DNA from: a virus
Virus record (IMG/VR): IMGVR_UViG_3300007735_000974
Coordinates: 3,884 to 67,883 of that record
Strand: one strand, 5' to 3'
DNA: 64,000 bases
Shown: positions 1,498 through 20,627 of the stretch, one piece after another
How positions within the stretch are numbered: position 1 is the stretch's first letter
Layout of the letters: each line of letters begins with the position of its first letter
Program-made: the position numbers and the translations under genes
The notes under the pieces: generated by a model
What the model was told of the DNA's origin: nothing
The model's input: only the letters and a program-made list of their open reading frames with translations
The model's database searches: none

Positions 1498-1506
1498 TTT
1501 AAAATT

Positions 1507-2442
1507 ATGGAAAAAAATTCTAGGATATTTGTAGCTGGTCATAGAGGTCTTGTTGGTTCTGCAATTGTTAGAACACTTCTAGAAAATGGATATACCAATA
1601 TAGTTACTAGAACAAGAAGTGAAGTTGATCTCCTCAATCAACAGCAGGTTGAAGATTTCTTTAAAAATGAAAACATTGAATATGTGTTTGATGCTGCTGC
1701 CAGAGTAGGTGGTATTAATGCAAATAATGTTTATTCGGCTGAATTTGTGTATGAGAATATTCAAATTCAAACTAATCTAATTCATTATGCTTGGAAATAT
1801 GGCGTTAAAAAGTTTCTCTTTATTGGTTCTGTCTGCATTTATCCTAAGTATGCAGAGGTTCCAGTTAAAGAAGAATCTTTAATGACTGGATATCTAGAAC
1901 CAACAAATGATGCTTATGCTATTGCTAAAATTTCTGGAATTAAAATGCTTCAGGCATATCATAAACAGTATGGATTTAAAAGTGTCTCTCTAATGCCGTC
2001 CAACATTTATGGACCTGGAGATAATTTTCATCCAGAAAATGGGCATGTTATTCCTGCAATGATAACCAAGTTCAATAATTCCAATGGTAAGTCTGTTACT
2101 TTTTGGGGTGACGGTACGCCAATGAGAGAATTTTTATATTCTGACGATTTGGCAGATGCCTGTCTTTTTGCTATGGATAAATTTGAAAATGCCGAAGTTG
2201 TTAATGTGGGTTCTGGGGAGAATGTTAGTATCCTCAATCTTGCAAATACGGTTGCATCAATTGTTGGATATCATGGGGAAATTAATTGGGATACGACTCG
2301 TCCAAATGGAACTCCAAATCGACCACTAGACTATTCTAAAATGACTAGTCTTGGATGGAAACCAAAACATACTCTTCGTGATGGATTGAAAAAATCATAT
2401 CAATGGTTTACTGAAAATACTTTTTATGACAGTTCAAAATAA
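1507..2442 (+). CDS. fcl: GDP-L-fucose synthase
   Basis: AGHRGLVGSA, AARVGGI, GSVCIYP, YAIAK, WGDGTPMREFLY motifs. Confidence 0.95.
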   Translation: MEKNSRIFVAGHRGLVGSAIVRTLLENGYTNIVTRTRSEVDLLNQQQVEDFFKNENIEYVFDAAARVGGINANNVYSAEFVYENIQIQTNLIHYAWKYGVKKFLFIGSVCIYPKYAEVPVKEESLMTGYLEPTNDAYAIAKISGIKMLQAYHKQYGFKSVSLMPSNIYGPGDNFHPENGHVIPAMITKFNNSNGKSVTFWGDGTPMREFLYSDDLADACLFAMDKFENAEVVNVGSGENVSILNLANTVASIVGYHGEINWDTTRPNGTPNRPLDYSKMTSLGWKPKHTLRDGLKKSYQWFTENTFYDSSK

Positions 2443-2458
2443 TCTTGGCACTTAAAAA

Positions 2459-3169
2459 ATGAAATCAAAAACAGAATCAAAAGTCACATTTAATAGACTT
2501 TTAACCGAAGACGATGTTTCAGTATTCTCTGAAATAATTAAAAAAGAAAAGTACCCAGAAAAGGGATTTAGGCATAGAGAACTATGGAATGTTCCTGCTG
2601 GATTTTCAAAATGGGTTTCTGTTCTTGAGCAATTCAGATCTTTAAATAAAAATAATTTAAAGGTTGTGGAATTGGGTCCTGGTACTGGGGTTGTTCCTTA
2701 TATCATTGCCAGTTGGGGAAATGATGTCACTGGAATTGATATTGAAGTTATTGAAAATTGGTGCCCTAAAAATCTAATCAGGATGGTTATTGGAGACGCT
2801 TTATTGGAGATAAAAGAAATGGATAGTGAGAGTGTAGATGTTGTAACCGATCTTTGTGCTATACATGAATTCAATCCCGTAAGTAATGAAGAATTTAAAA
2901 ATGTTGGTCTAAAGCAAGTCGCAGATCAAATTTTTAGAATCTTGAAAAAGGGTGGGAAATTTTTCATGTCTACTGACGTTTCTCTTGTTTTCCCTCCATC
3001 ACAACCAGGTGGATTCCTTCTTCCAGAAGATTTGATTGATATTGTAGAATCATCTGGATTGAAGTTAACTAGTCCATATAAAAAGGAATACGAACAATCA
3101 GAATACAAACCAATCTATCAATCGGCAATTGGTTTGCATATTGCTACTTTCTCTTTTGAAAAACCATAA
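2459..3169 (+). CDS. Class I SAM-dependent methyltransferase
   Basis: VVELGPGTG motif I, VTGID, RILKKGG. Confidence 0.8.
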   Translation: MKSKTESKVTFNRLLTEDDVSVFSEIIKKEKYPEKGFRHRELWNVPAGFSKWVSVLEQFRSLNKNNLKVVELGPGTGVVPYIIASWGNDVTGIDIEVIENWCPKNLIRMVIGDALLEIKEMDSESVDVVTDLCAIHEFNPVSNEEFKNVGLKQVADQIFRILKKGGKFFMSTDVSLVFPPSQPGGFLLPEDLIDIVESSGLKLTSPYKKEYEQSEYKPIYQSAIGLHIATFSFEKP

Positions 3170-3170
3170 T

Positions 3171-4727
3171 ATGAAAATTGTTATTCCAATGTCTGGAATG
3201 AGCCGCAGATTTATAGACGCGGGATATCAAATTCCAAAGTATCTAATTCACGCTAACAATAAAAGAGTCATAGAGCATATTGTTGATTTATATCCTAAGG
3301 ATAGTAATTTTCTGTTTATTATAAATGATAAACATGAGCAGGAGACAGAGGTTGTAAATTTGTTGAATGATATTGTAAGTAATAAAACAATTGTAACTAT
3401 TGATTCTCATAAAAAAGGACCAGTATATACAGTTTCTCAAGCACTACAGCACATAGAAGATGATGAACAAGTAGTTGTTAATTACTGCGACTTTTCAATG
3501 TATTGGGATTATCAAGATTTTGAAAATTTTGTAGATGAAACTGAGTGTGATAGTTGTGTTGTTTGTTACACGGGATTTCATCCACACATGTTAGGTGGTG
3601 ATAATTATGCTTTCTGTAAAGTCAACTTGCACAATGACATATTGGAAATAAGGGAGAAGCAACCCTTTACCGACAATAAAATGTCTGAGTATGCTTCTAC
3701 TGGAACTTATTATTTTCGTAAAGGTGAATATGTTAAAAAATATTTTCAGCAGTTAATTGAAGAAGACGTAAATATCAATGGTGAATATTATGTAAGTCTT
3801 GTTCATAATTTAATGATAAGAGATAATCTTATAAACAAGGTTTATGAAGTTCCTCATATGTTACAATGGGGAACGCCACTTGATTTTGATATGTATCAAA
3901 AGTGGTCCAACTATTATGAAAAAACACTTCATGGGCAAAAGGAAATTTTTATTCCAAATACTGTCACTTTGATACCAATGGCAGGAGCTGGGAGTAGATT
4001 TTTAAAAGAAGGATATTCGGAACCAAAACCATTTATTTCGGTGAATGGTAAAAGAATGGTTGACCAAGCACTTCGTTGTCTGCCTAAAACTGATAAAACT
4101 ATTTTTGGTTGTTTACGTGGACACAGAAGATTCTCTATCCTTGGTAATATTGTATGGATTGATGATGTATTGCCAGGACAAGCTTGTACAACAGAACGTC
4201 TTGTAAATGAAATTGAGTCTGAATCAATATTGATTTCTGCCTGTGATAATGGTGTATTTTATGATGCTAATAAGTTTTTAGATTTGGTAAATGATGATGA
4301 AAATGATATAATTGTTTGGAGTTATAGGAACAATTATACAAGTTACTACAATCCAAATATGTATTCTTGGTTAGACATTGATGAAAATCAAAACGTCTTG
4401 AATGTAAATGTAAAAGAATTTAAAGGAACAAATCCTGTAGAAGAGTATGCTATTGTAGGAACAATGTTCTTTAGAAATAAGGACACTTATCTTGAACCTC
4501 TTCAACAACTTTATAATAAAAATAAGAGAACAAACAATGAGTTCTATATTGATAACTTATTAAATGAAGCTATAGAACTTGGATATAAAGTTAAAAATTT
4601 TGAAATAGATGAATATATTTGTTGGGGAACACCTAACGATTTAAAAACCTACGAGTATTGGCAAAGATTTTTTAATAAAGTTGATTGGCATCTTTATGAA
4701 TACGCAAAAGACTATTTTACCAATTGA
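3171..4727 (+). CDS. Tandem two-domain sugar nucleotidyltransferase-like protein
   Basis: Two IPMxGxxxRF...PK starts (IPMSGMSRRF, IPMAGAGSRF), two NGEYY/NNEFY motifs and two WGTP motifs. Confidence 0.85.
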   Translation: MKIVIPMSGMSRRFIDAGYQIPKYLIHANNKRVIEHIVDLYPKDSNFLFIINDKHEQETEVVNLLNDIVSNKTIVTIDSHKKGPVYTVSQALQHIEDDEQVVVNYCDFSMYWDYQDFENFVDETECDSCVVCYTGFHPHMLGGDNYAFCKVNLHNDILEIREKQPFTDNKMSEYASTGTYYFRKGEYVKKYFQQLIEEDVNINGEYYVSLVHNLMIRDNLINKVYEVPHMLQWGTPLDFDMYQKWSNYYEKTLHGQKEIFIPNTVTLIPMAGAGSRFLKEGYSEPKPFISVNGKRMVDQALRCLPKTDKTIFGCLRGHRRFSILGNIVWIDDVLPGQACTTERLVNEIESESILISACDNGVFYDANKFLDLVNDDENDIIVWSYRNNYTSYYNPNMYSWLDIDENQNVLNVNVKEFKGTNPVEEYAIVGTMFFRNKDTYLEPLQQLYNKNKRTNNEFYIDNLLNEAIELGYKVKNFEIDEYICWGTPNDLKTYEYWQRFFNKVDWHLYEYAKDYFTN

Positions 4728-5799
4728 GTATTGGAATTCTGGAAGAACAAGACTTATAAAAGAAAAAGATGAGAATGGCAGAGATATTGAGGTTGCATAC
4801 TTTTTCTCTTGCCAATTTGTAGGACTATCCAAGCATTATCCACAACCACTCATTTATTCTCACCAAACTCATAAACTACATCTTCCAACCAAGGAGATGT
4901 TTATGTCTCTTGGGAGAGGGACAGTATATGAGGAGACGATGGAATATGAAGTTGAAGTTCCAATGATCTTTAAGAACTTCTGCTCAGTTCCTGTATTTTA
5001 CTTTGTGTACAATGTGGCAAACTACTATCATTTCATTTATGATACATTGCCTTATCTCTATTCATACTTTAATGAGAAAGAGATTCATCCAGACCTGAAA
5101 CTTCTTGTAAGTCCTCCTGAGGGTAAAGACGATTTGTATCCCTTCGTATGGGAATGCCTGGAACTTTTGGGAATAGGTCGTAAGGACGTAGTGTTTCTCA
5201 ATCCAGATACCTTATATAATACGGTTGTAGTTGGTTCTTCATTAACTCACAATGGACTATCAAACACTCCGCCACATTCGGGGGTCTTTGATATTATTAA
5301 CCGTATGAAGGGTGACTATCAAGGACCAGAGAAGATTTATATCTCACGTAGAACTTGGTTACATAATAACTTTGAAAACATCGGCACCAACTACACAGAG
5401 CGTCGTCGTTGTGTGAATGAGGATGAAGTAGCAGAATTTTTTAAATCCCAGGGATATGAAGAAGTCTTCTGTGAAAATATGACAATGAAAGAAAAGATTG
5501 GACTCTTCAATTCTGCAAAGTATGTTGCTGGTCCTATTGGTGGTGGTATGTGTAACGTAATCTTTTCGCCACCAGAAACCAAGGTCATTTCAATCAACAG
5601 CCCTTTGTTCTTTGATATTAATACGCGCTTTGAGTATTCAATGATACACACACAACTTCATCACTTTAACGACACTGAGTTTGTTGAGAAGGTAGAAGAA
5701 AGTGTAGAGAGTGATGGTGCGCTTTCTATTTCTGGTGGTCTAAACTCACCTTGGAAGGTGGATCTAAATAAACTAAAAACATTTCTTAACAATGTCTGA
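4696..5799 (+). CDS. Glycosyltransferase family 61 (DUF563)-like protein
   Basis: NYYHF, KIYISR, RRCVNEDEV, and F..A..VAGPIGGGMCN resembling the GT61 C-terminal motif. Confidence 0.7.
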   Translation: MNTQKTILPIEYWNSGRTRLIKEKDENGRDIEVAYFFSCQFVGLSKHYPQPLIYSHQTHKLHLPTKEMFMSLGRGTVYEETMEYEVEVPMIFKNFCSVPVFYFVYNVANYYHFIYDTLPYLYSYFNEKEIHPDLKLLVSPPEGKDDLYPFVWECLELLGIGRKDVVFLNPDTLYNTVVVGSSLTHNGLSNTPPHSGVFDIINRMKGDYQGPEKIYISRRTWLHNNFENIGTNYTERRRCVNEDEVAEFFKSQGYEEVFCENMTMKEKIGLFNSAKYVAGPIGGGMCNVIFSPPETKVISINSPLFFDINTRFEYSMIHTQLHHFNDTEFVEKVEESVESDGALSISGGLNSPWKVDLNKLKTFLNNV

Positions 5800-6457
5800 A
5801 ATAATAGAACTAGCAAGAGAAATCAGTGAATACACTATCTGTGGTGAGGGTAATGTATCTGTAAGAGACGGAGAGAATACTTTTTTAATTAAGGCAAGTG
5901 GGACTAGTCTTCATACTCTATCTAATGAAGACCTGACACTATGTAATATCCATGGAGTTCAGTTAGATTCTTCTCATAAAAAACCAAGTATTGAAACTTC
6001 ATTTCACGCTTGGATTATGAGAACTTTTCCAGAGATAAACTTTATTGCTCATACTCACCCACCACACACAACTAAAATTCTCTGTTCTAATCAGTTATAT
6101 CAGTTTGCAAATCACCGTTGGTTCCCTGATCAGATTGTGAGAAATGGAACTAAGTCCTGTGTAGTTCCTTATGCACCACCTGGAAAGGCAATTTTAAAAC
6201 TTGTAGAAAAGCACGTATCTGCATTTGTTGATTATGAAGGATACTTTCCAAAGTTGATTTTATTGCAGAATCATGGTATAATCACAGCATCTGCATCTAA
6301 AAAAGATTGCGCTGCCGCAACCTTAATGTGTGAAAAATCTGCTGATATTTTTATTGGAGCAAAACTTCTAGGTGGAGTTAAGTTCCTGACTAAGCAAGAA
6401 GTCGCTGATGTCGATACCTGTCCAAATGAAAACTATAGAAGAAAACTCTATCAATGA
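5792..6457 (+). CDS. Class II aldolase/adducin family protein (FucA/RhaD/MtnB fold)
   Basis: GEGNVS, IKASG, PSIETSFH, HTH and LQNHG metal/phosphate motifs. Confidence 0.88.
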   Translation: MSEIIELAREISEYTICGEGNVSVRDGENTFLIKASGTSLHTLSNEDLTLCNIHGVQLDSSHKKPSIETSFHAWIMRTFPEINFIAHTHPPHTTKILCSNQLYQFANHRWFPDQIVRNGTKSCVVPYAPPGKAILKLVEKHVSAFVDYEGYFPKLILLQNHGIITASASKKDCAAATLMCEKSADIFIGAKLLGGVKFLTKQEVADVDTCPNENYRRKLYQ

Positions 6458-6765
6458 AAATCATTTATGTTGATATTGACGAAACCATTTGTCATCGGGA
6501 AACTTCTGTTGACTTTGGCACAACTCATGATTACACCAAAGCAAAACCTATCCCAGAGAATATAGAAAAGATTAATAAACTCTATGACGAAGGTCATACA
6601 ATAGTTTATTGGACTGCTCGTGGTTCTAGAAAGCAAATTGATTGGACAGAACTTACAAGTCAACAACTTGCTGAGTGGGGAGCGAAGTATCATGAGTTAA
6701 GAGTGGATAAACCTTTTTATGACTTATTCATTGAAGACAAATCATTACGGATTGAAGAATTATGA
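6454..6765 (+). CDS. Small HAD-superfamily phosphatase (capsule-biosynthesis type)
   Basis: DIDETI motif I, WTARG motif II, KP..DLFIEDK motifs III/IV. Confidence 0.82.
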   Translation: MKIIYVDIDETICHRETSVDFGTTHDYTKAKPIPENIEKINKLYDEGHTIVYWTARGSRKQIDWTELTSQQLAEWGAKYHELRVDKPFYDLFIEDKSLRIEEL

Positions 6766-7223
6766 AAATTATTTCTCATCGCGGAAACATTCGTGGTCCT
6801 GTACCTGACAAGGAAAATCGTCCTAGTTACATTGATTGTGCAATCGGTAATGGATATGATGTGGAAATTGACGTTCGTTCAATCAATGGTGAACTTTGGT
6901 TAGGTCACGATGAACCACAGTACAAGGTTGACCATAATTGGATAGATAAGCGTAGGCACTATTTGTGGTTACACTGTAAAAATATTGAAGCAGCAACTGA
7001 ATGTTGGGCATATCATTCATTTTGTCACTCGAATGATCCATTTGTCTATACATCCGTTGGAAAAATTTGGTTGCATAATGACTTAGAATCGGTTTTGTTG
7101 AATGATAACATTATCATACCTAGGATTAGTAAATCTGATTTGGAGTCTTTTAATAAGGATAAAACTTTAGGAACACCATTTGCTATCTGTACTGATTACC
7201 CCGCTATGATTGGAGAATACTGA
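6762..7223 (+). CDS. GDPD/PI-PLC-like phosphodiesterase domain protein
   Basis: ISHRGN, EN, DVEIDV, LGHD, ICTDY motifs. Confidence 0.75.
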   Translation: MKIISHRGNIRGPVPDKENRPSYIDCAIGNGYDVEIDVRSINGELWLGHDEPQYKVDHNWIDKRRHYLWLHCKNIEAATECWAYHSFCHSNDPFVYTSVGKIWLHNDLESVLLNDNIIIPRISKSDLESFNKDKTLGTPFAICTDYPAMIGEY

Positions 7224-7224
7224 A

Positions 7225-7989
7225 ATGACTAAAAAATTTGCTGTTTGTTTTTCTGGTTATCCCAGATTTGTTAGAAAACAATTCGAAAATATTAAGACTA
7301 ATTTTCTAGATGGTCTTGGAGATTATGACATCTATGCGATGTTTCAATGGCCTGAGGATTGGAAAAATACTTTAATGCATGTTAGTCATGACGACAAGTT
7401 TGAAACTAATGAAGTAGAAGATTTCAAAGAACTCTATGGACCTTTAAATCTTAAAAAGATTGCCACTATTCCACCTTATGACTTTAGTCATCTTGAATTT
7501 AATGGTAAAAATGCAGAACCAGATTTGGGTGGGGTTTCTGAAGAAATCTTGAGAGACCTCTTTTATAGACAAAAATGTCAGTTTCAAGGTATCGAAGATT
7601 GTATCAAACTTATTGACAACCCAAATGACTATCAATTTGTTGTCAGAATGAGAACGGATCTAGTCTTTCATTCAGAAGTAACTATGAAAGATTTAGAATC
7701 CAAAGTAATTATCAATCAAGACGGATATATTGCTGGAGCAGATAGACCAGCTTCAGATTGGTTCTTCATCACTCCAACAAATAAACTTGAGTTTTTTACT
7801 GAACTTTCTAAAATTGAAGAGCACTTTAAAGAAGGTGTTGTTGGGCATCACAGAATCATTGCCCAACTTGGTGAGAAGTATGGCATTGAATATCACGAGT
7901 TCAATATTCGAACACCCACAGCCACTGGAGGAGCGTCTGTTCTTTACAAAAAACCCACTGACAATTATAATGTAATTAGGAAGTTTTGA
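7225..7989 (+). CDS. Uncharacterised glycan-locus protein (paralog family with 7994 and 12768)
   Basis: AVCFSGYPR N-terminus and YQFVVRMRTD motif shared with two neighbours. Confidence 0.6.
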   Translation: MTKKFAVCFSGYPRFVRKQFENIKTNFLDGLGDYDIYAMFQWPEDWKNTLMHVSHDDKFETNEVEDFKELYGPLNLKKIATIPPYDFSHLEFNGKNAEPDLGGVSEEILRDLFYRQKCQFQGIEDCIKLIDNPNDYQFVVRMRTDLVFHSEVTMKDLESKVIINQDGYIAGADRPASDWFFITPTNKLEFFTELSKIEEHFKEGVVGHHRIIAQLGEKYGIEYHEFNIRTPTATGGASVLYKKPTDNYNVIRKF

Positions 7990-7993
7990 TAAG

Positions 7994-8770
7994 ATGAAAG
8001 TAGCTTTAATATTTTCTGGTCAACCCAGATTCGTAAAGGAGTGTGCTCCTTATTTAATTGAAAATATTGTTAGCAAATATGATGTAGATGTATTTGCTCA
8101 TTTGTGGTTTGATGAAAACCTATTGAAAACTCCTTATAAGTATGAAGGAAATTGGCCAACTCAAACTATTAGTCCAAATGCTTTAGAAACTTTTAAAGAA
8201 CTTTATAATCCTATCGGTCTTGAAGTTGAAGAAAGCATGTCATTTCAAGACGACAGCATGGACTTTGAAGCAAGTATGAGAAAATATAATGATTGGGCAA
8301 CACCTAATGCTCCAGACAATATGAAAAATGGAACAAAGGGTTTTATGAATTTGATTAAGTCAAATCAAATTTCATACTTTTATAGTCTGAACAAAGCAAA
8401 TCTTTTGAAGAAAAAGTTTGAATATCAAAATAACTTTAAGTATGATTGGGTTATCAGGGCAAGAACTGATACTGCACCACATACTCCTTTGGAACTTTCT
8501 AACTATAATCCAAATGCTGTAACATACACGAATATTAATAATCAAGAATCTGTTACTCCTGGATTAATTTGTGACTGGTTGAATTTTGGTAACTCATACG
8601 TTATGGACGTGTTTAATAGTTGTTTTCCCTGTTATGATCATCTTATTGAAGAATGTAAAAGAACAAATAATGGTGCTTGGTCTCCAGAACTAGTTCATAG
8701 AAAAATGGTTGATCTTTATAAAGTGAAAGCAGAAGGTCATTCTATTCCAGTATCATTGCCCAGATTTTAA
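7994..8770 (+). CDS. Uncharacterised glycan-locus protein (paralog family)
   Basis: KVALIFSGQPR, DVFAHLW, YDWVIRARTD. Confidence 0.6.
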   Translation: MKVALIFSGQPRFVKECAPYLIENIVSKYDVDVFAHLWFDENLLKTPYKYEGNWPTQTISPNALETFKELYNPIGLEVEESMSFQDDSMDFEASMRKYNDWATPNAPDNMKNGTKGFMNLIKSNQISYFYSLNKANLLKKKFEYQNNFKYDWVIRARTDTAPHTPLELSNYNPNAVTYTNINNQESVTPGLICDWLNFGNSYVMDVFNSCFPCYDHLIEECKRTNNGAWSPELVHRKMVDLYKVKAEGHSIPVSLPRF

Positions 8771-9483
8771 TGAATATTCTTATTCCTATGGCAGGTGAGG
8801 GAACACGTTTCCCCAGAGACACCTACAAAGTCCCAAAACCACTAATTAACGTTAATGGTTCTCCAATGATTCAAGTTGCTCTGGCATCTTTAGGATTAGT
8901 TGGAACTTATCATTTTGTTATTCGTAAAGACAGTTACTATGATCAGGTGTGCCATTTATTACACTCTATCTTTCCAGATTCAAAAATAATTAGTGTTGAC
9001 GAAACAACTTCTGGTCCAGCATCTAGTTGTCTTTTGTTTCGGGATTATATCAATAATGAAGATGAGTTAGTTGTTGCTAACTGCGATCAAATCATGTGGT
9101 GGGATCCAAATTTATTTCTTAATACTGCAAGATATTATAGGTATGACGGATTAGTTGTTACTTATACCACAACTACACCAAAGAATAGTTATGCCAAAAT
9201 TGATAAAATGGGATTTGTTCAGGAGATAAAAGAAAAAGAAGTTATTAGTGATGTTTCTTTAAATGGAATTCATTACTGGAGAAAAGGAAAATATTTTGTG
9301 CAAAGTGCAGAAAGTATGATACAATGTAAAGATACTGCTCCAAATGGTGAATTTTATGTTGGTCCGACATATAATTATATGATTAAACAGGGTTTGAAAG
9401 TTGGAATTCATCATATTCCAAACTATCAACATAATCCAGTTGGAGTCCCAGAGGATTTGAATTCTTTCTTGCAAAAATTATGA
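8770..9483 (+). CDS. Sugar nucleotidyltransferase-like protein
   Basis: ILIPMAGEGTRF...PKPLI, NCDQ, EIKEKEVIS, NGEFYV, VGVPED. Confidence 0.85.
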   Translation: MNILIPMAGEGTRFPRDTYKVPKPLINVNGSPMIQVALASLGLVGTYHFVIRKDSYYDQVCHLLHSIFPDSKIISVDETTSGPASSCLLFRDYINNEDELVVANCDQIMWWDPNLFLNTARYYRYDGLVVTYTTTTPKNSYAKIDKMGFVQEIKEKEVISDVSLNGIHYWRKGKYFVQSAESMIQCKDTAPNGEFYVGPTYNYMIKQGLKVGIHHIPNYQHNPVGVPEDLNSFLQKL

Positions 9484-9806
9484 ACGTTACAAAGATAAAA
9501 GATTATGTCCGTGGGTGGTTCATTGGAAACTTTGAACCCTCTTTGTTGAAGACAAGTGGTTTTGAAGTTGGCGTTCTTACCCATCCCAAAGGAGAGCAAT
9601 GGCCAGCACACTATCACAAAGAAACTATTGAATATAATGTTCTTGTTTCTGGTAAAATGACCGTCCAGGGAAAAGAGCTAAATAGTGGTGATGTATTTGT
9701 CTTTGATAAAGGAGAGATTGCAGATCCTGTTTTTCTTGAAGACTGTACTGTTGTTTGTGTGAAAGTCCCCTCCATTCCTTCTGATAAATTTGAGATTGAA
9801 AAATGA
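9480..9806 (+). CDS. Cupin-domain protein
   Basis: HYHKETIEYNVLVSG cupin metal motif; GWFIGNFEP N-terminus. Confidence 0.8.
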   Translation: MNVTKIKDYVRGWFIGNFEPSLLKTSGFEVGVLTHPKGEQWPAHYHKETIEYNVLVSGKMTVQGKELNSGDVFVFDKGEIADPVFLEDCTVVCVKVPSIPSDKFEIEK

Positions 9807-11041
9807 AATTTTTTAGAGAACTAACTGAATACGAAAAAGATCGTTGTGTAGTTGCAACTTACTACATTGAATCTTATGAAAACCTTGGCACTTTGAGAGA
9901 TGCTGCTTGGAATCTTGCCATTGGACAAAGCGTTGGTAACCCAAAAGTTCGTAATCGTTGGGAAAGCGATGAACTATTTGAGCTAGCATCTTGTGTGATT
10001 TACGCTGACGAAAATGAACTTTCTCAGCAAACCAAAGGGCAAGTAAAAATTGGTTTCCCTAAAGTTAATACTGACTGGGAGGGAGATGGAATTTCTCACC
10101 TTCTTTGTCAATTGATGGGTGGTCAGTTAGACATTGATGTATTCAAAGTTTGCAGACTGCAGAAGTTAGAGTTTCCTGCAGATGTTGAAGCATCATTCCT
10201 TGGACCTAAAAATGGTATTGATGGAATTAGAAAGTTTGTTAATCGTTATGACAAACCTCTTTCTGGTGCGATTGTAAAACCAAAAACTGGTATCTCTCCA
10301 CAAACTCTCTCCGAGATGGTGAAAGAACTTCTTGACGGAGGCGTAGACTTTATTAAAGAAGATGAGATTCTTTCTAATCCCTCCTTCTGTCGTCTTGAAG
10401 ATCGTGTAGAACTTATTTCTAACATTGTTAATAATTGTGGGAGAAATGTAATCTATACATTCTGCATTAATGGTGATCATCATACCATTCTTGATCGTGC
10501 TAAATTTGTTGCAGAGAATGGTGGTAACGGTATTCATATTAATTTCTGGTCAGGTCTTGGAGTTTATAACTCTGTAAGAAAAATGAACCTACCATTGTTT
10601 ATCCATTATCAGAAGAGTGGAGACAAAATCCTTACGGATAAACGCCACGCATTTGGAATAGATTGGGACGTTCTTTGTGACCTTGCTGGTCTCTGTGGTG
10701 TGGATACGATTCACGCTGGAATGTGGGGTGGATATCTAAGCGATGACGAAAATGAACTTCGTCAAACCATGGCAACACTTCATAAGAGAAATGTTCTTCC
10801 CGCACTGAGCTGTGGTATGCATCCAGGCATTGTCAACACGACCGCAGAGAAGTTTGGTACAGACTTCCTTGCTAATTGTGGTGGAGCAGTTCATGGGCAC
10901 CCAGGTGGCACTCTGGCAGGTGCTCTGGCAATGCGTCAGGCAATCGACAAAACTCCTGGTCCAGAGTTTCGTGCTGCTATTGATAAATGGGGGTATGAAA
11001 CTGGAGGAGGTTCTTTACCTGAGTGGGTTTTAGATTTTTGA
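9803..11041 (+). CDS. RuBisCO-like protein (form IV, RLP)
   Basis: FLGPKNGIDG, IVKPKTG (K175/K177), GGVDFIKEDE (K201/D203/E204), IHAG (H327), SCG (S379), GGAVHGHPGG...GA.AMRQA. No small-subunit gene in the window. Confidence 0.93.
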   Translation: MKFFRELTEYEKDRCVVATYYIESYENLGTLRDAAWNLAIGQSVGNPKVRNRWESDELFELASCVIYADENELSQQTKGQVKIGFPKVNTDWEGDGISHLLCQLMGGQLDIDVFKVCRLQKLEFPADVEASFLGPKNGIDGIRKFVNRYDKPLSGAIVKPKTGISPQTLSEMVKELLDGGVDFIKEDEILSNPSFCRLEDRVELISNIVNNCGRNVIYTFCINGDHHTILDRAKFVAENGGNGIHINFWSGLGVYNSVRKMNLPLFIHYQKSGDKILTDKRHAFGIDWDVLCDLAGLCGVDTIHAGMWGGYLSDDENELRQTMATLHKRNVLPALSCGMHPGIVNTTAEKFGTDFLANCGGAVHGHPGGTLAGALAMRQAIDKTPGPEFRAAIDKWGYETGGGSLPEWVLDF

Positions 11042-11118
11042 TTCCCTCTTTTAAAACGAATATATAAAAAAGAATTTTATTTACTGAAGATTATTTAATT
11101 TAACAAGGAGATTAATTC

Positions 11119-11760
11119 ATGAAGTGGCAAACTGACCTTATTAAGGACATTAGAAGCAATACGCCTTATGATGATACTGAAGCAGGTATTAATCATTTTC
11201 TACATATTTGGCCTGGTATTGAAAATGATCCAGGAGTTTTAAATCCATTTGATGGTGTTGAGTGTAGTGAGTGTAATAAAGCAGCACTGCTTGAACAATT
11301 TTTGAAGGTTCGGGATAACTGTGCGGCAATTCTTGAAATTGGAATTGGTAGAAATGGTGAGAACTCTTTTGCTCATGTGTTTTTCAAAAATAAAAAAGAC
11401 GAAACCAAGTACGTTGGAATTGACATTGAAGATCGTAGTTGGTTGATTGATTGTGGTGAAAACATCTACACTATTCAAGGTAGTAGTTCAAACTATGAGG
11501 AGAATGTAGAAATTTTTAAAACTATGGGTGTAGATAAATTTGATTTTATTTTCATTGATGGTGATCATAGTGTAAATCAAGTTCTTAGAGATTGGGAATA
11601 TTCAAATCTTCTAAATGATGGTGGAATTGTTGGATTCCATGATACTAGTCATCATACTGGACCTTATCTATTCATTAAAAATTTGAATAAAGATATTTGG
11701 GATGTAGTTGAAAATGCTTGCCCACAAGATTATGGCATTGGATTTGCCAGAAAAAAATAA
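11119..11760 (+). CDS. Class I SAM-dependent methyltransferase (Methyltransf_24-like)
   Basis: LEIGIG, FDFIFIDGDHS, GGIVGFHD. Confidence 0.85.
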   Translation: MKWQTDLIKDIRSNTPYDDTEAGINHFLHIWPGIENDPGVLNPFDGVECSECNKAALLEQFLKVRDNCAAILEIGIGRNGENSFAHVFFKNKKDETKYVGIDIEDRSWLIDCGENIYTIQGSSSNYEENVEIFKTMGVDKFDFIFIDGDHSVNQVLRDWEYSNLLNDGGIVGFHDTSHHTGPYLFIKNLNKDIWDVVENACPQDYGIGFARKK

Positions 11761-11763
11761 ATC

Positions 11764-12771
11764 ATGAATCATATTGAAAATTTAAAATCCCAATATAAGG
11801 TAATTGTCTGGGGATTTAAACCAAACGAACAAGGCATTCATAAAAATACTGTAGGTTATGTTTGGGGTGGGTATTATAAAGGTTTCAAATCATTAGGGTT
11901 TGAAACCCACTGGATGTGTGATGATGATTATGATTCATCTCTAGATTATTCTAACTGCATTTTTATTGCTGAAGCATGGGACAGTAATAAAATGCCAATT
12001 GAAAATACATCCATTTATTACGTTCATAATGCTTATGATCCCTCAAAATATATCGGTAAAGTAAAAAAATTTATCGATATGAGATATAATCAAAAGTTTA
12101 TGAATAATCCAAATTATGTTTTTGAACGTAATAAAGACGAAGATGTTAAGGTAGGTCCTTGTTGCTATTATCAAGAATCGACTAATAAAATAATTCATTT
12201 AAAAAATGGATTTGTTGATTATGATATAGATGACTTTGACAAAATCTATACTAATTGGGCAACTGATTTATTGCCGGAAGAAATGAATGAGGATGATATT
12301 TACTTAGAGAGAGAAAATCTTATTGTTTTTCTTGGCACAATTTATTCTGATCAGTATACTAATATACCAGAATTACAAGAATTTGCAGAAGTTTGTAAAA
12401 CAAATAATGTTGATTTTCTAGTTAATCCATATTCTTATGGATCAGATCAAATTTCTGTAGATGACTATATCTCAAATTACAAAAGATCATTGTTTGGTCT
12501 TGACCTAAGAGGAAAAGATAATAGAGAAACTGGATATATTCCGTGCCGAGTATTTAAGAATGCAAGTTATGGTCTTTTGAGCACCACTAATTCCGAAGAA
12601 ATTTTCAAAGAAATGGACGGATATTGTGTATACAATCCATCTGTAACTCAACTATTTTATGATGCAATGGAGAAAAGAACAGATTTGGATTTTGTAAAGG
12701 AATCTTTTAATTATGTAAAAGAAAATCATACTTATATTAATAGATGTTCTGATTTGCTTAAAGTACTATGA
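11764..12771 (+). CDS. Putative GT-B glycosyltransferase-like protein
   Basis: C-terminal PCRVFK..SYG...VKENHTYINR resembles CgeB/GT1_2-type tails; glycan-locus context. Confidence 0.5.
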   Translation: MNHIENLKSQYKVIVWGFKPNEQGIHKNTVGYVWGGYYKGFKSLGFETHWMCDDDYDSSLDYSNCIFIAEAWDSNKMPIENTSIYYVHNAYDPSKYIGKVKKFIDMRYNQKFMNNPNYVFERNKDEDVKVGPCCYYQESTNKIIHLKNGFVDYDIDDFDKIYTNWATDLLPEEMNEDDIYLERENLIVFLGTIYSDQYTNIPELQEFAEVCKTNNVDFLVNPYSYGSDQISVDDYISNYKRSLFGLDLRGKDNRETGYIPCRVFKNASYGLLSTTNSEEIFKEMDGYCVYNPSVTQLFYDAMEKRTDLDFVKESFNYVKENHTYINRCSDLLKVL

Positions 12772-13490
12772 AAGTAGCATTTTGTTTTTGTGGACAACCA
12801 AGAGACGTTAAAAACAGTCTTGATAATATAAAAAAAGCATGGGGAACATATCAAGAATTAGATTTTTTCTTCCATACTTGGATACCAGAAGATAGAACAC
12901 CATATCGTATTGATACGCCATCAGATTCTTATTTTACTGGCATTGAATCATATTTAATTGAAAGTTTGAACCCAGTCAAGTGTGAATTTCAAAGACAAAT
13001 AACTTTTAGAAATCAATACAGAGATTCTGTGCATTGGCCAATCCGTAGTGCCTTTATCCCTAATCCGTCTCAAAATATTCAGTCCTTCTTTTATTCACTG
13101 AAGAAGGCAAATGATTTGAAACGGCAACATGAAATTGAAAATAATTTTCGATATGATTGTGTAATTAGATGTAGATTTGACTACATCTTCAATAAAAAGT
13201 ATAATGTTGAAGACTTTGATTTAAATTATCTAAACGTAAAGGGTGATTGTAAGCATACTGAATATGCTATCAATGACCATGTTGCATTATCAAACAGCGA
13301 AAATATGGATTTATATTCTACCGTGATTGATAATATGCAGAAGTATTATATGGAAGGTATTGAATTTAATACTGAAGTTATCTTAGGATATAATGCAATG
13401 ATGCAGGGTTTGGAATATCATAAAACTCTGGGTGATAATGATGAGTCATACGTTTCTACAAAAGTTGAAAGGAATAGAGTTTTCTTATGA
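12768..13490 (+). CDS. Uncharacterised glycan-locus protein (paralog family)
   Basis: KVAFCFCGQPR, DFFFHTW, YDCVIRCRFD. Confidence 0.6.
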   Translation: MKVAFCFCGQPRDVKNSLDNIKKAWGTYQELDFFFHTWIPEDRTPYRIDTPSDSYFTGIESYLIESLNPVKCEFQRQITFRNQYRDSVHWPIRSAFIPNPSQNIQSFFYSLKKANDLKRQHEIENNFRYDCVIRCRFDYIFNKKYNVEDFDLNYLNVKGDCKHTEYAINDHVALSNSENMDLYSTVIDNMQKYYMEGIEFNTEVILGYNAMMQGLEYHKTLGDNDESYVSTKVERNRVFL

Positions 13491-14455
13491 ACATTGCTTT
13501 TATTGGTCCTGGTGTTATGCCCATCCCACCTAATGGTTGGGGTGCTGTTGAGATGATGATATGGGACTATGCTACCATTATGGGAGACTTAGATCACACT
13601 GGTATAATCATCAATACTCCAGACAGAAATCAAATTCTTGAAGAATTGAAGCAAGATAAGTTTGATATTGTTCATCTTCATTATGATGTGTTTCATGATA
13701 TTATTCCTTACATTCCAACCGTAACAAATGGGAAATTAGTAGTATCAAGTCATTATCCTTATATAAACAATCCTTCAATGTGGAGGCAAGATAACTATGG
13801 TCCAATTATGAATTCTTATTCCAAGAATGAGAACTTTCATATTTTTGCCTCAAGTCAAAACGATATTAATACATTTGTTGAAAATGGTGCAATTGAAGAA
13901 CGCTGTTGGTTGAGTCGTCTTGGTGTCTTGCATTCTTCATATTCTTTTGACGCAACTCCAACATATAGTAATACACTTTGTTTTTCCCAAGTATGTGATC
14001 GCAAACGTCAATATCTTCTGCAAGATTTTGATAATGTGGACATTATTGGAAGAATGGAGCAAGGAAGGTTTACCAATCCAAAAAACTATAAAGGTGAGTA
14101 TGATAGGAAAAAACTAAACGAAGAGATTACCAAGTATCCAAACTTTACTCTTCTAAGTAAAATTGAAAATACAACTCCTCTTGTTGTAAAAGAAGCATTG
14201 ATTTGTGGACTTGGCGTAGTTGTTTCTGAAACAGTTTCTGTTGAATTGGATACTACAAGAGAATTTGTTGACGTGATTCCAGAAGATAGAATAGAAGACA
14301 TTTCATACGTTAATTCGGTTTTGGAAAAGAACAAAGAGTACTCCGTTCAAAACAGAGAAGAGATTAGAGAATATGGTATCAATACTTTTGGATTGGAAAG
14401 TATCATTAAAAATGAATATGTTCCTAAATTGGAATCTATAATCAATGAAAATTAG
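13487..14455 (+). CDS. Glycosyltransferase family 4-like
   Basis: PIPPNGWGAVE N-terminus, LVVKEALICGLGVV. Confidence 0.8.
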   Translation: MNIAFIGPGVMPIPPNGWGAVEMMIWDYATIMGDLDHTGIIINTPDRNQILEELKQDKFDIVHLHYDVFHDIIPYIPTVTNGKLVVSSHYPYINNPSMWRQDNYGPIMNSYSKNENFHIFASSQNDINTFVENGAIEERCWLSRLGVLHSSYSFDATPTYSNTLCFSQVCDRKRQYLLQDFDNVDIIGRMEQGRFTNPKNYKGEYDRKKLNEEITKYPNFTLLSKIENTTPLVVKEALICGLGVVVSETVSVELDTTREFVDVIPEDRIEDISYVNSVLEKNKEYSVQNREEIREYGINTFGLESIIKNEYVPKLESIINEN

Positions 14456-15389
14456 TATTATTGGTCCTGCAACTCAAATACCTCCAGTTGGTTGGGGAGC
14501 AGTAGAAAGTTTAATCTGGGATTATAAGATAACTCTAGAGAAGTTGGAACATCAAGTTCAAATTATTAACGTTGGAAGTCCTGTAGAAATCATTCAAAAA
14601 GTTAATTCTTTTAGACCAGATTTTGTTCATATTAACTATGACGATTGGATTACAATCTATCCATACATTCAGTATCCTTGTGCTTGTACAACTCACTATG
14701 GTTATCTTGAAAATCAAGATATGATGGGTGGATATGTGAATATATTCAATTTATTTGGACAATACAAACCAAATATTTTTTGTTTGTCTTCAGGTATAAA
14801 AGAAGTATACAGAACTAGGTTAGGTATACCAGAGCAAAATTTATATTTGAATCCAAATGGAGTAAATGTAGAAAATTTTAAATTTACTACAGACCCAAAA
14901 TTTCCTGATAGAAGCATTTATCTTGCAAAGGTTGACTATAGAAAAAGACAATATTTGTTTCAAGGAATCTCCAGTTTATGGTATGCTGGGAACATTGCAG
15001 ACTCTAGATTCAATACTCAAAAAAATTATCTTGGGGAGTGGAGTAAAGAAACTCTTTATGCCAATTTGACAGACTATGGAAATCTGGTATTATTGAGTGA
15101 TGGTGAAGCGCATCCTCTAGTTTGCATGGAGGCTTTTGCTGCTGGTTTAGGTGTTGTCGTTAGTGAATATGCGACTGCTAATCTAGATTTAGATAAAGAT
15201 TTTATTGACGTTATTCCTGAAAATAAAATCAGTGACATTTCATATATTGAAAGTGTTATAACCAAGAACAGAGAATATTCTATTTCTCATCGTGAAGAAA
15301 TTTTTGAATACTCCAAAAACTTTGAGTGGTCAAATATAATAGAGAATTATTATCTACCCAGTATTGAAAAATTGATTGAAAAATTATGA
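14445..15389 (+). CDS. Glycosyltransferase family 4-like (paralog of 13487)
   Basis: IPPVGWGAVE, PNGV, EAHPLVCMEAFAAG (E-x7-E). Confidence 0.82.
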   Translation: MKISIIGPATQIPPVGWGAVESLIWDYKITLEKLEHQVQIINVGSPVEIIQKVNSFRPDFVHINYDDWITIYPYIQYPCACTTHYGYLENQDMMGGYVNIFNLFGQYKPNIFCLSSGIKEVYRTRLGIPEQNLYLNPNGVNVENFKFTTDPKFPDRSIYLAKVDYRKRQYLFQGISSLWYAGNIADSRFNTQKNYLGEWSKETLYANLTDYGNLVLLSDGEAHPLVCMEAFAAGLGVVVSEYATANLDLDKDFIDVIPENKISDISYIESVITKNREYSISHREEIFEYSKNFEWSNIIENYYLPSIEKLIEKL

Positions 15390-16177
15390 TAGGATTTAAT
15401 GCTTTAGGTCAATTAGGCAGACTTGGAAATCAAATGTTTCAATTTGCTGCTCTCAAAGGAGTTGCAAATAAACATGGATATCAATACTGTATTCCTCCAA
15501 GTCAAAATAAAAATGAGTGGAAAGATCATCAATTGTTGGTCCCATTCAAATTAGAAAGTGTTTCTCAATTGAACGTCCAATATATTGATGTTGATAGACC
15601 AATTGTTATGGAAGGGACATTTTCATTTAATGAAAAGTTTTTTAATCAATGTCCTGATTGGGTTTCTATTCAAGGATTTTTTCAATCTGAAAAATACTTC
15701 AAACATATTGAAGATGAGATTAGATCTGATTTTACATTCAAAGATGAAATCCTGGAACCTTGCAGAGAAATGATTTCTCAATTGAATGCTTCTCCAATTG
15801 CACTTCATATTCGTAGAACGGACTATATTACCAATCCAAATCATACTGCACTTGAATTGGATTATTATCAAAAAGCATTGGAGCAGTTTGGTAATGAAAC
15901 AGTTCTTGTATTCTCTGATGATCCAGAATGGTGCAATCAACAAGAACTATTTTCTTCAGATAGGTTTCTTATTGCTGAGGGCAATAGTAATTATGTTGAC
16001 TTATGTTTGATGACATTATGTTCGGGTCATATTATTGCAAACTCTTCATTCTCTTGGTGGGGTGCGTGGTTAGCAAACAATAATAAAGTTGTTGCGCCAT
16101 CTGGGTGGTTTGCTGGATCTGATAATAAACACATAGATACTAAAGATCTTATTCCAGAAACTTGGATGATAATTTAA
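15386..16177 (+). CDS. Alpha-1,2-fucosyltransferase (GT11)
   Basis: GRLGNQMFQ, GFFQSEKYF, HIRRTDY, FSDD, ANSSFSWWGAWL. Confidence 0.93.
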   Translation: MIGFNALGQLGRLGNQMFQFAALKGVANKHGYQYCIPPSQNKNEWKDHQLLVPFKLESVSQLNVQYIDVDRPIVMEGTFSFNEKFFNQCPDWVSIQGFFQSEKYFKHIEDEIRSDFTFKDEILEPCREMISQLNASPIALHIRRTDYITNPNHTALELDYYQKALEQFGNETVLVFSDDPEWCNQQELFSSDRFLIAEGNSNYVDLCLMTLCSGHIIANSSFSWWGAWLANNNKVVAPSGWFAGSDNKHIDTKDLIPETWMII

Positions 16178-16893
16178 TGAAAGTTGCGATTTGTTTTATT
16201 GGAACTGGAAAGTATTTGAACTTCCTTCCAAAGTATTATGAAAATATTCAAGAATATTTTCTTCCTAACAGCGAAAAGACTTTTTTAGTTTTTACTGATG
16301 GAGAAGGTGATTTTCCTGATGATGTCAAAGTATATCAACAAGAACATCTTGAATGGCCTTATGTTACTTTAACAAGATTTGGAATCATTCAAAAAGCAAA
16401 AAAAGAAATTGTAAAGAATGATTGGTTTGTTTTTATTGATGCAGATGCATTGGTAGTTGATTCAATTACTGAAGAAGAATTTTTTAATAATGAAAAACCA
16501 TTCTTTGGTGTTCACCATCCTTGCCACTTCCTTCAAATGCCTCCTCATAATAAATATCCAGGAGCATTTGAAACCAATCCACTATCACTATCACACATAA
16601 GTCAAACTGATGATTTATCTGTGTATTATCAGGGATGTTTATGGGGAGGAAGAGTTCCTGATGTTCTTGAAATGATTGAAGAACTTGATGGTAGAATCAA
16701 TAAAGATCTTGAAAATAATGTGATTGCGGTCTGGCATGATGAAAGTCATATCAACAAATTTTTTATTGAGCGCAAAGAAAATGTAAATATTTTAGGACCT
16801 GAATATGCATATCCTGAAGTATTTTCTGAACATTGCAAATTTGAACCAAAAATAGTACACTTAGCAAAGAACAACTCAAAATATCATGTTTGA
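16177..16893 (+). CDS. Glycosyltransferase family 6 (ABO/alpha-Gal-type)
   Basis: IGTGKY, VFTD, WP..TL.RF, DAD, YYQGCLWGG, WHDESHIN, PEY. Confidence 0.9.
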   Translation: MKVAICFIGTGKYLNFLPKYYENIQEYFLPNSEKTFLVFTDGEGDFPDDVKVYQQEHLEWPYVTLTRFGIIQKAKKEIVKNDWFVFIDADALVVDSITEEEFFNNEKPFFGVHHPCHFLQMPPHNKYPGAFETNPLSLSHISQTDDLSVYYQGCLWGGRVPDVLEMIEELDGRINKDLENNVIAVWHDESHINKFFIERKENVNILGPEYAYPEVFSEHCKFEPKIVHLAKNNSKYHV

Positions 16894-17695
16894 ATTAGTT
16901 GATAAGAATAAATCTGCTCATAAACTTAAAGGTATTGGTCCAATCTATTACTTAAATCTTGATGGTCAACCAGAAAGACGCCAGTATATGGAAGACCAAT
17001 TTAAATATTGGGAGATTGAAAACTACACACGTATTTCTGCATATGATGGACGTGAGGATGACTTAAGTAATATTATTGCTGGTCGTTATCCTGAAATGAT
17101 GACTTCTGGTGAAATTGGATGCACTACATCTCATCTAAAAGCAATTAAACATTGGATGGAAACATCTGATGATCCTTATGCAATTATTATGGAGGATGAT
17201 TGCAACTTAGACTTGGTTAAGTTCTGGAACTTTACTTGGGATGATTTCTATGCACACATCCCTTATGACTGGGATATTGTACAAATTGCTATTATCTGTA
17301 CTGGCGATATTCACGTTAAGTTGCATAAGAGATTTGTAAATGATTTTTCTACGGCTTGTTATTTGATTAATCGACATCACGCAGAAAAACTTCTTAAGTT
17401 TCATTGTAGAGGAAATAAGTATAAACTTGATAATGGCGTTAAACCAAGACCTGTTGCAGATGATTTGATTTATAATACGGGGAATACATATTCAATTCCT
17501 CTTCTTCTTTATAGAATTGAATTGGGATCTTCTATTCATCCAGAACATATTGATGCATTTCATAAAGCAAACTATAATGCTTTATCGCAGTTTTGGGAAC
17601 AGAATGGTGCTGATATTGATATTAAGGATTATATGAATTACGATCCTTATCTTGGTAGGATAACCGAAAATTCCGCAGCAAATCAATCCGCTTGA
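16886..17695 (+). CDS. Glycosyltransferase family 25
   Basis: YLNLD..PERR, RISAYDG, GEIGCTTSH, IMEDD, STACYLI. Confidence 0.88.
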   Translation: MFELVDKNKSAHKLKGIGPIYYLNLDGQPERRQYMEDQFKYWEIENYTRISAYDGREDDLSNIIAGRYPEMMTSGEIGCTTSHLKAIKHWMETSDDPYAIIMEDDCNLDLVKFWNFTWDDFYAHIPYDWDIVQIAIICTGDIHVKLHKRFVNDFSTACYLINRHHAEKLLKFHCRGNKYKLDNGVKPRPVADDLIYNTGNTYSIPLLLYRIELGSSIHPEHIDAFHKANYNALSQFWEQNGADIDIKDYMNYDPYLGRITENSAANQSA

Positions 17696-17756
17696 CATAT
17701 TTTATAATTTATATTATACTATGCTCATCTTAAGATTTGCTTAAGACGTATAAATA
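17692..17756 (+). promoter_or_regulatory. Sigma70-type promoter (TTGACA-17-TATACT) followed by T4-type late promoter TATAAATA, upstream of the porin
   Basis: TTGACA 17692-17697, TATACT 17715-17720, TATAAATA 17749-17756. Confidence 0.75.
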
Positions 17757-17816
17757 ACGAAGATTTGCCTTGTTGTAAATCTTCACATTGTCGTTTAGTA
17801 CAAAAAACAAACTTTT

Positions 17817-19304: not shown

Positions 19305-19307
19305 TAA

Positions 19308-20627
<1,320 letters not shown>

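Follow-up and report, generated by a model that had tools for sequence, protein, structure and literature searches.

The stretch of DNA considered here, hereafter the window, comprises 64,000 nucleotides (positions 3,884 to 67,883) of the IMG/VR virus record IMGVR_UViG_3300007735_000974, a 67.9-kb sequence with a CheckV completeness of 32%. At positions 9803-11041 it encodes a RuBisCO-like protein (RLP) of the 'form IV-like' clade, which is embedded in a cluster of glycan genes and directly preceded by genes for a small cupin and a sugar-phosphate nucleotidyltransferase (NTase). The window carries psbA (phrog_182, 2.4e-200) together with genes for a gp32-type single-stranded DNA-binding protein, a baseplate hub/tail lysozyme, a tail tube and a tube cap, and the combination of psbA, the gp32-like protein, the baseplate hub and the tail tube indicates a T4-like cyanomyophage. 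The records that share sequence words with the stretch are mostly labelled as freshwater, estuary and viral metagenomes. The features on which the argument is built are the following.

9803 to 11041, plus strand: RLP, 412 amino acids, an exact open reading frame (ORF) with an ATG start
9480 to 9806, plus strand: small cupin, 108 amino acids, with an HYH...E motif (Pfam Cupin_2 3.7e-5, below cut-off)
8770 to 9483, plus strand: sugar-phosphate NTase, 237 amino acids (Pfam NTP_transferase 1.8e-8)
6762 to 7223, plus strand: mini GDPD-like phosphodiesterase, 153 amino acids, displaced upstream in the window and found directly after the RLP in most relatives
229 to 17695, plus strand: same-strand glycan cluster around the RLP, about 17 kb

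The ORF at 9803-11041 is a full-length member of the RuBisCO large-subunit superfamily. Residues 138-382 match the Pfam model RuBisCO_large (PF00016) with an E-value of 2e-43 and 149.2 bits (cut-off 30.1), and the model of the RuBisCO N-terminal domain reaches 16.7 bits, under its cut-off of 20.7. A phmmer search against PDB sequences retrieved 99 distinct chains at E<=1e-3, headed by form III RuBisCOs (8dht 4.3e-40, 2cwx 1.7e-38, 3a13 4e-37), with RLPs next in order (4nas 4.2e-36, 3nwr 5.8e-36, 2oej 1.1e-32). The structure prediction and superposition that had been proposed as a check on the original prediction returned a full large-subunit fold: the AlphaFold2 model, built from a 26-sequence family alignment, has a mean pLDDT of 93.5 and a pTM of 0.91, and displays the two domains of RuBisCO, namely an N-terminal alpha+beta domain and a C-terminal TIM barrel. 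In Foldseek, form III RuBisCOs ranked top (TMq 0.85-0.87, with 0.86 over about 440 alignment columns), and the known RLPs MtnW (2oem), 3nwr and Chlorobium RLP (1tel) gave TMq values of 0.81, 0.79 and 0.83, respectively. The pLDDT falls below 50 at residues 401-412 only, and this C-terminal tail, '...GSLPEWVLDF' (window 11003-11041), is conserved in a few relatives, for example P0112, and is absent from most members of the family.

The active site was mapped twice, by HMMER alignments to three true carboxylases (the form III matches from PDB) and by a MAFFT alignment (A1) with an annotated form I large subunit from a Phyllobacterium plasmid (L082), whose numbering is that of spinach +2 around K175-E204, and with an annotated OiaX (L083). 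Spinach numbers are attached by motif. The two maps agree on all listed positions save W66, which is ambiguous, as HMMER aligns P47 there and MAFFT opens a six-residue insertion and aligns a later Trp. K175, K177, K201, D203, E204, H292, H327, L335, S379, G381, G403 and G404 are kept, and the replacements are E60G, T65N, N123G, T173I, H294Q, R295K, H298D, K334Y and G380C. The motifs that carry these residues are listed below, each with its aligned counterpart where one is given.

AIGQSVGN against VAGESSTAT: E60 replaced by G41, T65 by N46
MGGQ against IGNV: N123 replaced by G107
Single position: T173 replaced by I157
IVKPK: K175 and K177 kept as K159 and K161
IKEDE: K201, D203 and E204 kept as K185, D187 and E188
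IHYQKSGD against LHLHRAGH: H294 replaced by Q270, R295 by K271, H298 by D274
IHAGMWGGYL against IHAGTVVGKL: H327 kept as H304, K334 replaced by Y311
LSCG against ASGG: S379 kept, G380 replaced by C337, G381 kept
CGGA against FGGG: G403 and G404 kept

All residues that the original prediction had read by eye as retained (K175/K177, K201-D203-E204, H327, S379 and G403/G404) were placed accordingly in both maps. The same is true of Gly at position 60, Gln/Lys at 294/295 and Tyr at 334; a proper alignment with K334, H294 and E60 conserved had been named beforehand as refuting. In RuBisCO, E60, N123, H294 and K334 are needed for carboxylation. The residues K334, H294, E60 and N123 that mark true RuBisCOs of forms I-III are represented in the RLP by Y311, Q270, G41 and G107; these replacements are invariant in the family, and the predicted loss of CO2 fixation is well supported. 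The RLP is almost certainly a non-carboxylating member of the 'form IV-like' clade.

The family alignment pooled 258 sequences including the window protein, i.e. 138 database proteins of 340-460 amino acids together with RLP ORFs of viral and cellular loci aligned over at least 340 residues, of which 235 were unique after removal of duplicates, with 35-97% identity to the window protein. The metal site of the superfamily, formed by K185, D187 and E188 (K201, D203 and E204) together with K159 (K175), is present in 235/235 sequences, as are G41, Q42, S43, I157, K161, H245, N247, Q270, Y311, S336, G338 and G360. N46, P47, G106 and G107 occur in 234/235, C337 in 232, G361 in 231, H304 in 224, K271 in 222 and D274 in 215. 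Since E60G, H294Q and K334Y are fixed in all 235 relatives, they constitute a family signature rather than decay. H245, N247, Q270 and Y311, which had escaped the first reading of the sequence, are gained invariant residues located at the ends of barrel strands and in loop 6, and together with Q42 and S43 they suggest a distinct reaction rather than mere loss of the old one. Pairwise dN/dS against phage homologues was 0.017-0.083 in the 8 of 12 pairs with finite dS, which is about 1 even in these eight and saturated in the remaining four; the RLP is under strong purifying selection.

The position of the family in the superfamily is equally distinct. The six matching NCBIfam equivalog/subfamily models, the carboxylase models included, all score far under their cut-offs: rubisco_III (199.8; cut-off 497.45), PRK04208 (193; 438), MtnW PRK09549 (168.6; 409), OiaX (155 with an E-value of 2.5e-45; 700), TIGR03332 (125; 513.6) and PRK13475 (107.6; 489). 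A quick maximum-likelihood tree with midpoint rooting only was built from 114 rows, consisting of 26 family members, form I, OiaX and 86 other representatives, the last being 50%-cluster representatives of 370-500 amino acids from the 117 ids P0157-P0273. The family rows and one partial representative form a single branch (SH-aLRT 100) opposite all 87 other rows, including form I and OiaX. The active-site string of the family is shared by none of the 86 other representatives, and the partial representative, P0207, placed within the family by the tree, agrees with it over the six positions covered. A separate clade of representatives has Lys at the N123 position, where MtnW reportedly has its catalytic Lys. 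The form III enzymes (Thermococcus kodakarensis 3a12/3a13, Pyrococcus horikoshii 2cwx, and 8dht), which are the best matches in both sequence and structure, have the Lys-carbamate/Mg site and K175/K177 in common with the RLP; they differ in being only 27-28% identical to it and in having E60, N123, H294, R295, H298 and K334, all of which are replaced in the RLP.

Both junctions upstream of the RLP, NTase-cupin and cupin-RLP, are ATGA stop/start overlaps, and the RLP is by this arrangement translationally coupled to the cupin and the NTase. Gene partners were surveyed by tblastn with 23 proteins of the window cluster against 80 viral loci, the best 80 of the 230 IMG/VR stretches that encode a relative, with offsets taken from the RLP start. 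The NTase was found in 75/80 loci (median offset -1033), the cupin in 66/80 (-323) and the 153-residue mini-GDPD in 68/80 (+1240, directly after the RLP). The class II aldolase, the HAD phosphatase and the S-adenosylhomocysteine (SAH) hydrolase of the window were found in 0, 1 and 0 loci, respectively, and the aldolase and the phosphatase are specific to the window phage. When ORFs were counted in the 78 viral loci with an RLP ORF, the NTase was present beside it in 73, the cupin in 64 and the mini-GDPD in 64, in the following combinations, several incomplete ones lying at contig ends.

RLP, NTase, cupin and mini-GDPD: 46/78
RLP, NTase and mini-GDPD: 10/78
RLP, NTase and cupin: 8/78
RLP, NTase, cupin and kinase: 5/78
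RLP and mini-GDPD only: 3/78
RLP, NTase, cupin, mini-GDPD and kinase: 3/78
RLP, cupin and mini-GDPD: 2/78
RLP and NTase only: 1/78

Of 42 cellular loci, 37 have the NTase beside the RLP, 20 the mini-GDPD and 11 the cupin; another 10 have a longer protein of 250 amino acids, whose representative is a full-length Pfam GDPD (5.2e-23). The association of the RLP with a GDPD-type phosphodiesterase extends across viruses, bacteria and archaea. The APH-type kinase was considered as a replacement for the mini-GDPD and rejected, since the two occur together in three loci whose flanks are long. The RLP is covered, at 90-99% identity, by contigs from three RNA-library runs that belong to three studies, and two of them pass position 11042 into the start of a mini-GDPD, which is the common gene order.

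As for the partners themselves, the best solved relative of the NTase is an uncharacterised Vibrio 'NDP-sugar pyrophosphorylase' (4evw, 3.2e-12), and the protein also matches the MobA/IspD-type Pfam model NTP_transf_3 (9.6e-7). The best PDB matches of the cupin are generic (YxaG 5.4e-5, MJ0764 0.033), and look-ups in ESM-Atlas returned only generic names for both the cupin and the NTase. No Pfam or NCBIfam family was found for the 153-residue protein, and its phmmer matches in PDB were at chance level. In an alignment of its relatives (A3) the motifs HR, EN, ExD, HD and HxK are invariant, the derived profile matches the PDB GDPD 7e0v at 2.1e-4, and the AlphaFold2 model (pLDDT 89.1) retrieves GDPDs as its top Foldseek matches (1v8e, E 1.6e-4, TMq 0.50). 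Because none of the 14 aligned members matches any Pfam model at E<=1, GDPD (PF03009) included, the protein is termed GDPD-like rather than filed as a member.

The original prediction had gone further and proposed Mg/carbamate-dependent proton abstraction on a monophosphorylated sugar. Behind this proposal stand the Mg/carbamate triad and K175/K177, which proved invariant, and the chemistry and the substrate may be regarded as a reasonable reading that nothing found here contradicts. The replacement of H298 by Asp (215/235) argues against a second phosphate, positive charge is retained by R295K, and the backbone P1 site (G381, G403, G404) is kept; it is thus H298D and the changed residues of the N-domain, alongside the retained backbone phosphate site, that point to a monophosphate, given the roles ascribed to residues of the P1 and P2 sites. 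On the best reading, the RLP would be a catalytically competent, Mg/carbamate-dependent enzyme acting on a keto-sugar monophosphate.

Since the RLP almost always adjoins a sugar-phosphate nucleotidyltransferase, it probably helps to make an unusual activated sugar for surface glycans. That it partners the NTase in making an activated glycan precursor is rather likely, and the best explanation overall, to which we give slightly better than an even chance, is that of a non-carboxylating, enolising RLP (isomerase or epimerase) that feeds a glycan precursor activated by the NTase. In such a scheme, a keto-sugar monophosphate would be bound via the conserved backbone phosphate site, and the Mg-bound carbamate would abstract the alpha-proton to give an enediolate. 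The latter would be reprotonated with no addition of CO2, the likely proton donor being Y311 of loop 6, which would be placed as K334 is, over C2 of the enediolate, to give a sugar phosphate that is either carbonyl-transposed or epimerised. This product, or a later intermediate, might then be activated as a nucleoside diphosphate (NDP) derivative by the coupled NTase and installed on a glycan by the glycosyl- or phospho-transferases of the cluster, with the GDPD-type enzyme making or transferring a phosphodiester. In the phage, the genes would act as an auxiliary module of a glycan (lipopolysaccharide-like) cluster, the putative target being the surface of the cyanobacterium or a phage structure. 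The specific sequence of enolisation and reprotonation is the more doubtful part and is offered as a tentative proposal.

Several considerations weigh against this explanation. We know of no member of the clade with a known substrate, product or activity. The usual substrates of the NTase family are anomeric (aldose-1-) phosphates or primary alditol phosphates, so that an enolised ketose phosphate is not an obvious route to its substrate. H294 also acts in the enolisation step of true RuBisCO, and its replacement by Gln means that the proton chemistry may differ from that step. Gene linkage is a correlation in clusters that are mosaic, and it would not in itself establish whether the RLP acts before or after the NTase and the GDPD-like enzyme. 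The class II aldolase and the HAD phosphatase of the window, being unconserved with the RLP, are of no help. In addition, some of the IMG/VR contigs at 59-68% identity may be cellular rather than viral, and the RNA-library contigs are a hint of expression rather than proof, since they are products of assembly and DNA can be present in libraries of this kind.

Four other readings have been weighed, and none of them fits the invariant residues together with the gene partners. The one that survives best, although unlikely, is modelled on the DeepYkr RLP of Rhodospirillum rubrum, which carries out enediolate isomerase chemistry on a ketose-1-phosphate in the MTA-isoprenoid shunt (review PMC6302742). 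Here the RLP would convert ribulose-1-phosphate substituted at position 5 into an analogue of xylulose-5-phosphate by a 1,3-isomerisation, after which the substituent would be taken off by the cupin and the resulting DXP/MEP-like phosphate activated by an IspD-like cytidylyltransferase. The arrangement of an RLP beside a small cupin (the MTXu-5-P methylsulfurylase of the shunt) is indeed that of the shunt (PMC6302742), the cupin is coupled to the RLP in the window and is present in 64/78 viral loci, the NTase matches NTP_transf_3, and Tyr at the K334 position could conceivably protonate C2 of the enediolate, the first half of a 1,3-shift. However, the clade stands apart from all other representatives of the superfamily with an active-site string of its own (the R. 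rubrum protein being compared by description), and the cupin, whose PDB matches are generic, is dispensable in many loci, being missing from 31/42 cellular ones in which the RLP and the NTase are kept, so that the constant partner is the NTase. Moreover, there is no conserved reductoisomerase nearby in the viral and cellular neighbourhoods.

A role like that of OiaC/OiaX in D-apiose catabolism, as a decarboxylase or transcarboxylase-hydrolase acting on a beta-keto acid-sugar phosphate, is distinctly improbable. Annotated OiaX genes are the top plasmid matches of the RLP, at about 30% identity, the NCBIfam OiaX model matches at 2.5e-45, and OiaX resembles the RLP in its Gly at the N123 position and in an aromatic residue close to 334/335. 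Yet the score of that model (155) is far under its cut-off of 700, and OiaX/OiaC keep H294/R295 and are without K177, the opposite of the window RLP. Furthermore, these enzymes belong to catabolic operons with a four-carbon acid-sugar kinase, which is absent from the viral and cellular neighbourhoods, whereas the context of the RLP is biosynthetic.

Still less probable is an MtnW-type 2,3-diketo-5-methylthiopentyl-1-phosphate (DK-MTP-1-P) enolase within a phage methionine-salvage set, in which the class II aldolase would be the MtnB-like member, the HAD phosphatase the MtnX-like and the cupin the MtnD-like one, joined by the SAH hydrolase. The four enzyme superfamilies of the Bacillus pathway are all found within 5 kb, the SAH hydrolase lies at 19374-20627, and the aldolase weakly matches MtnB models below cut-off (PRK09220 4.6e-13, TIGR03328 3.6e-12). 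MtnW/YkrW itself (Geobacillus 2oek/2oem, Alicyclobacillus 4nas) shares the fold and the metal site with the RLP (TMq 0.77-0.81, the highest for 2oem) and enolises a monophosphorylated keto compound. In contrast, the MtnW models score far under their cut-offs (168.6 against 409 and 125 against 513.6), the position that reportedly holds the catalytic Lys is Gly in 234/235 sequences, with Lys carried there by the separate clade noted above, and the residues at 294, 295 and 334 differ. The gene partners differ as well: aldolase, phosphatase and SAH hydrolase stand beside the RLP in 0, 1 and 0 of the 80 viral loci, and the nucleotidyltransferase that is the constant partner plays no part in methionine salvage. 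Lastly, a bona fide form III-like RuBisCO boosting host carbon fixation, for which the form III matches and the other photosynthesis gene of the phage (psbA) might be cited, has virtually no chance of being correct, as it is already contradicted by the invariant K334Y, H294Q, E60G and N123G, by a rubisco_III score of 199.8 against a cut-off of 497.45, and by the lack of any gene for a small subunit, PRK or the AMP pathway nearby.

Returning to the enolising RLP coupled to an NTase, a wider formulation can be put forward with some reserve, as it is rather less than an even prospect: the clade could be a fifth, biosynthetic functional class of the RuBisCO superfamily. Its remodelled site, in which the carbamate/Mg core is combined with the invariant Q270, Y311, H245, N247, Q42 and S43, would yield a rare sugar phosphate, keto- or carbonyl-shifted, which a dedicated NTase and a GDPD-type phosphotransferase would convert into a nucleotide-activated or phosphodiester-linked decoration, the cassette being spread by phages. 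If this were true, a three- to four-gene cassette would have been spread by phages among cyanobacterial hosts, SAR11, the candidate phyla radiation (CPR) and DPANN, and infected cells or virions would display a sugar made by no known pathway.

The functions of RLPs have been found clade by clade, namely in methionine salvage, the MTA-isoprenoid shunt and apiose catabolism, and each assignment revealed a non-carboxylating use of the RuBisCO scaffold. The present clade is large, with members in abundant lineages of sea and fresh water as well as in hundreds of viral contigs, and its unusually clean invariant signature and constant gene partners make the assignment of a function tractable. In cyanomyophages, whose glycan (lipopolysaccharide-like) clusters are poorly understood, it would contribute a defined step. 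Phage RLPs have already been published, and the NTase-cupin-RLP-GDPD cassette is a useful new lead.

With respect to distribution, 2,678 database proteins match the RLP at E<=1e-10 among 8,000 scored candidates, and a relative is encoded in 230 of 231 pattern-matched IMG/VR stretches. A further 44 cellular loci carry relatives, including a complete Pelagibacter chromosome, SAR11 single-cell genomes, Beckwithbacteria, Saccharibacteria, Woese- and Nanoarchaeota, Verrucomicrobia, Nonomuraea rosea and Azospirillum oleiclasticum; the clade is common to phages, SAR11, CPR bacteria and DPANN archaea. No relative was found by tblastn in the isolate genomes among 50,697 INPHARED phage records, a set from which the record of the window itself may be absent. 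Searches of the literature yielded nothing on the function of the clade, and the papers listed in connection with nucleotide sugars do not, by title or abstract, deal with bacterial or phage RLPs.

The remark in the original prediction that a virus-encoded member of the superfamily is itself unusual is out of date. Besides the 230 stretches counted here, the relevant passages of Jaffe, Castelle, Dupont and Banfield (Mol Biol Evol 36:435; PMC6389311; online December 2018) report putative phage contigs from IMG/VR, Myoviridae among them, with about 80 non-redundant sequences related to form IV; these sequences group with Beckwithbacteria as an outgroup to other RLPs, have key residues unlike those of known form IV and are of a function called 'unclear'. 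The window clade is presumably this 'IV-like' clade, to judge from the source, the taxa and the description given there, and it likewise forms a separate branch (SH-aLRT 100) that includes a Beckwithbacteria locus (L095) at 50% identity. The gene neighbourhood of the phage RLPs is not described in those passages of PMC6389311, to which the linkage with NTase, cupin and GDPD and the list of invariant residues are added here.

Individual loci depart from the common arrangement. In the viral loci L030-L037, whose RLPs are 83-86% identical to that of the window, the RLP is directly followed by an APH/fructosamine-kinase-type kinase, a dehydroquinate-synthase-like sugar-phosphate cyclase and a short-chain dehydrogenase/reductase, a set that, with the NTase, resembles C7-cyclitol (valienol-type) pathways; by this analogy, a keto-cyclitol phosphate could be the substrate of the RLP. 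In the cultured actinomycete Nonomuraea rosea (L121, 5096-12920), the genes run in the order GDPD-like, RLP, cupin, NTase. Next come a GT2, a 442-residue protein that has the NAD-binding domain of SAH hydrolase (9.3e-16) but no other part of it, and a dNK-like kinase, and a phage-type integrase lies upstream. This locus suggests a mobile island and a possible nucleoside-derived substrate. In Azospirillum oleiclasticum (L122, 6771-11480), sulfate-activation genes of the CysD-like and CysN/CysC-like types come after the module, together with one for a TPR-GT41 protein, neighbours that point to a sulfated glycan context. A 4.6-kb contig binned into a Methanobacteriota metagenome-assembled genome (L084) carries an NTase, cupin, RLP and mini-GDPD that are 75-85% identical to the phage genes, and is probably a phage fragment that was mis-binned.

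The glycan cluster of the window further contains genes for a C-methyltransferase, an NAD epimerase/dehydratase, methyltransferases, a second NTase, GT61, the class II aldolase, the HAD phosphatase, DUF7796-like paralogues, GT4, GT11, GT6 and GT25. The aldolase and the phosphatase, the latter of 103 amino acids and of the capsule EcbF/BcbF type (3.7e-5), occupy 5792-6765; the best models of the aldolase are L-ribulose-5-phosphate 4-epimerase (1e-20) and ribulose-1-phosphate aldolase (1.6e-18), all below cut-off. Their participation in a pathway with the RLP was considered and rejected on the counts of 0/80 and 1/80 loci. The DUF7796 paralogues at 7994-8770 and 12768-13490 match at 1.8e-6 and 6.2e-5, the latter below cut-off, and the ORF at 7210-7989, which has no Pfam match, has in common with them an N-terminal 'SG.PRF' motif. 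The DUF7796-like protein cluster is the fifth commonest neighbour of the RLP (41 viral loci and 10/42 cellular loci), and its members may be transferases that use the product of the module.

Just past the cluster lie a cyanobacterial-type porin at 17817-19304 (OprB 1.6e-13, SLH domain 1e-8) and the full SAH hydrolase at 19374-20627 (AdoHcyase 1.6e-64), neither of which was found by tblastn beside the RLP in the 80 viral loci. The GC content in 18001-20000 is 0.415, against about 0.31-0.37 in the flanking bins, and a terminator-like hairpin at 19338-19357 lies 3' of the porin. A scan of positions 1-20000 for promoters and terminators was at background level, with 83 promoter-like sites against 85.9 expected and 12 terminator-like sites against 9.4. 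Farther on, the window encodes a C39-like papain-fold peptidase at 21557-22246 and, among the tail genes, a 1,388-residue protein with three PA14 domains at 55178-59344.

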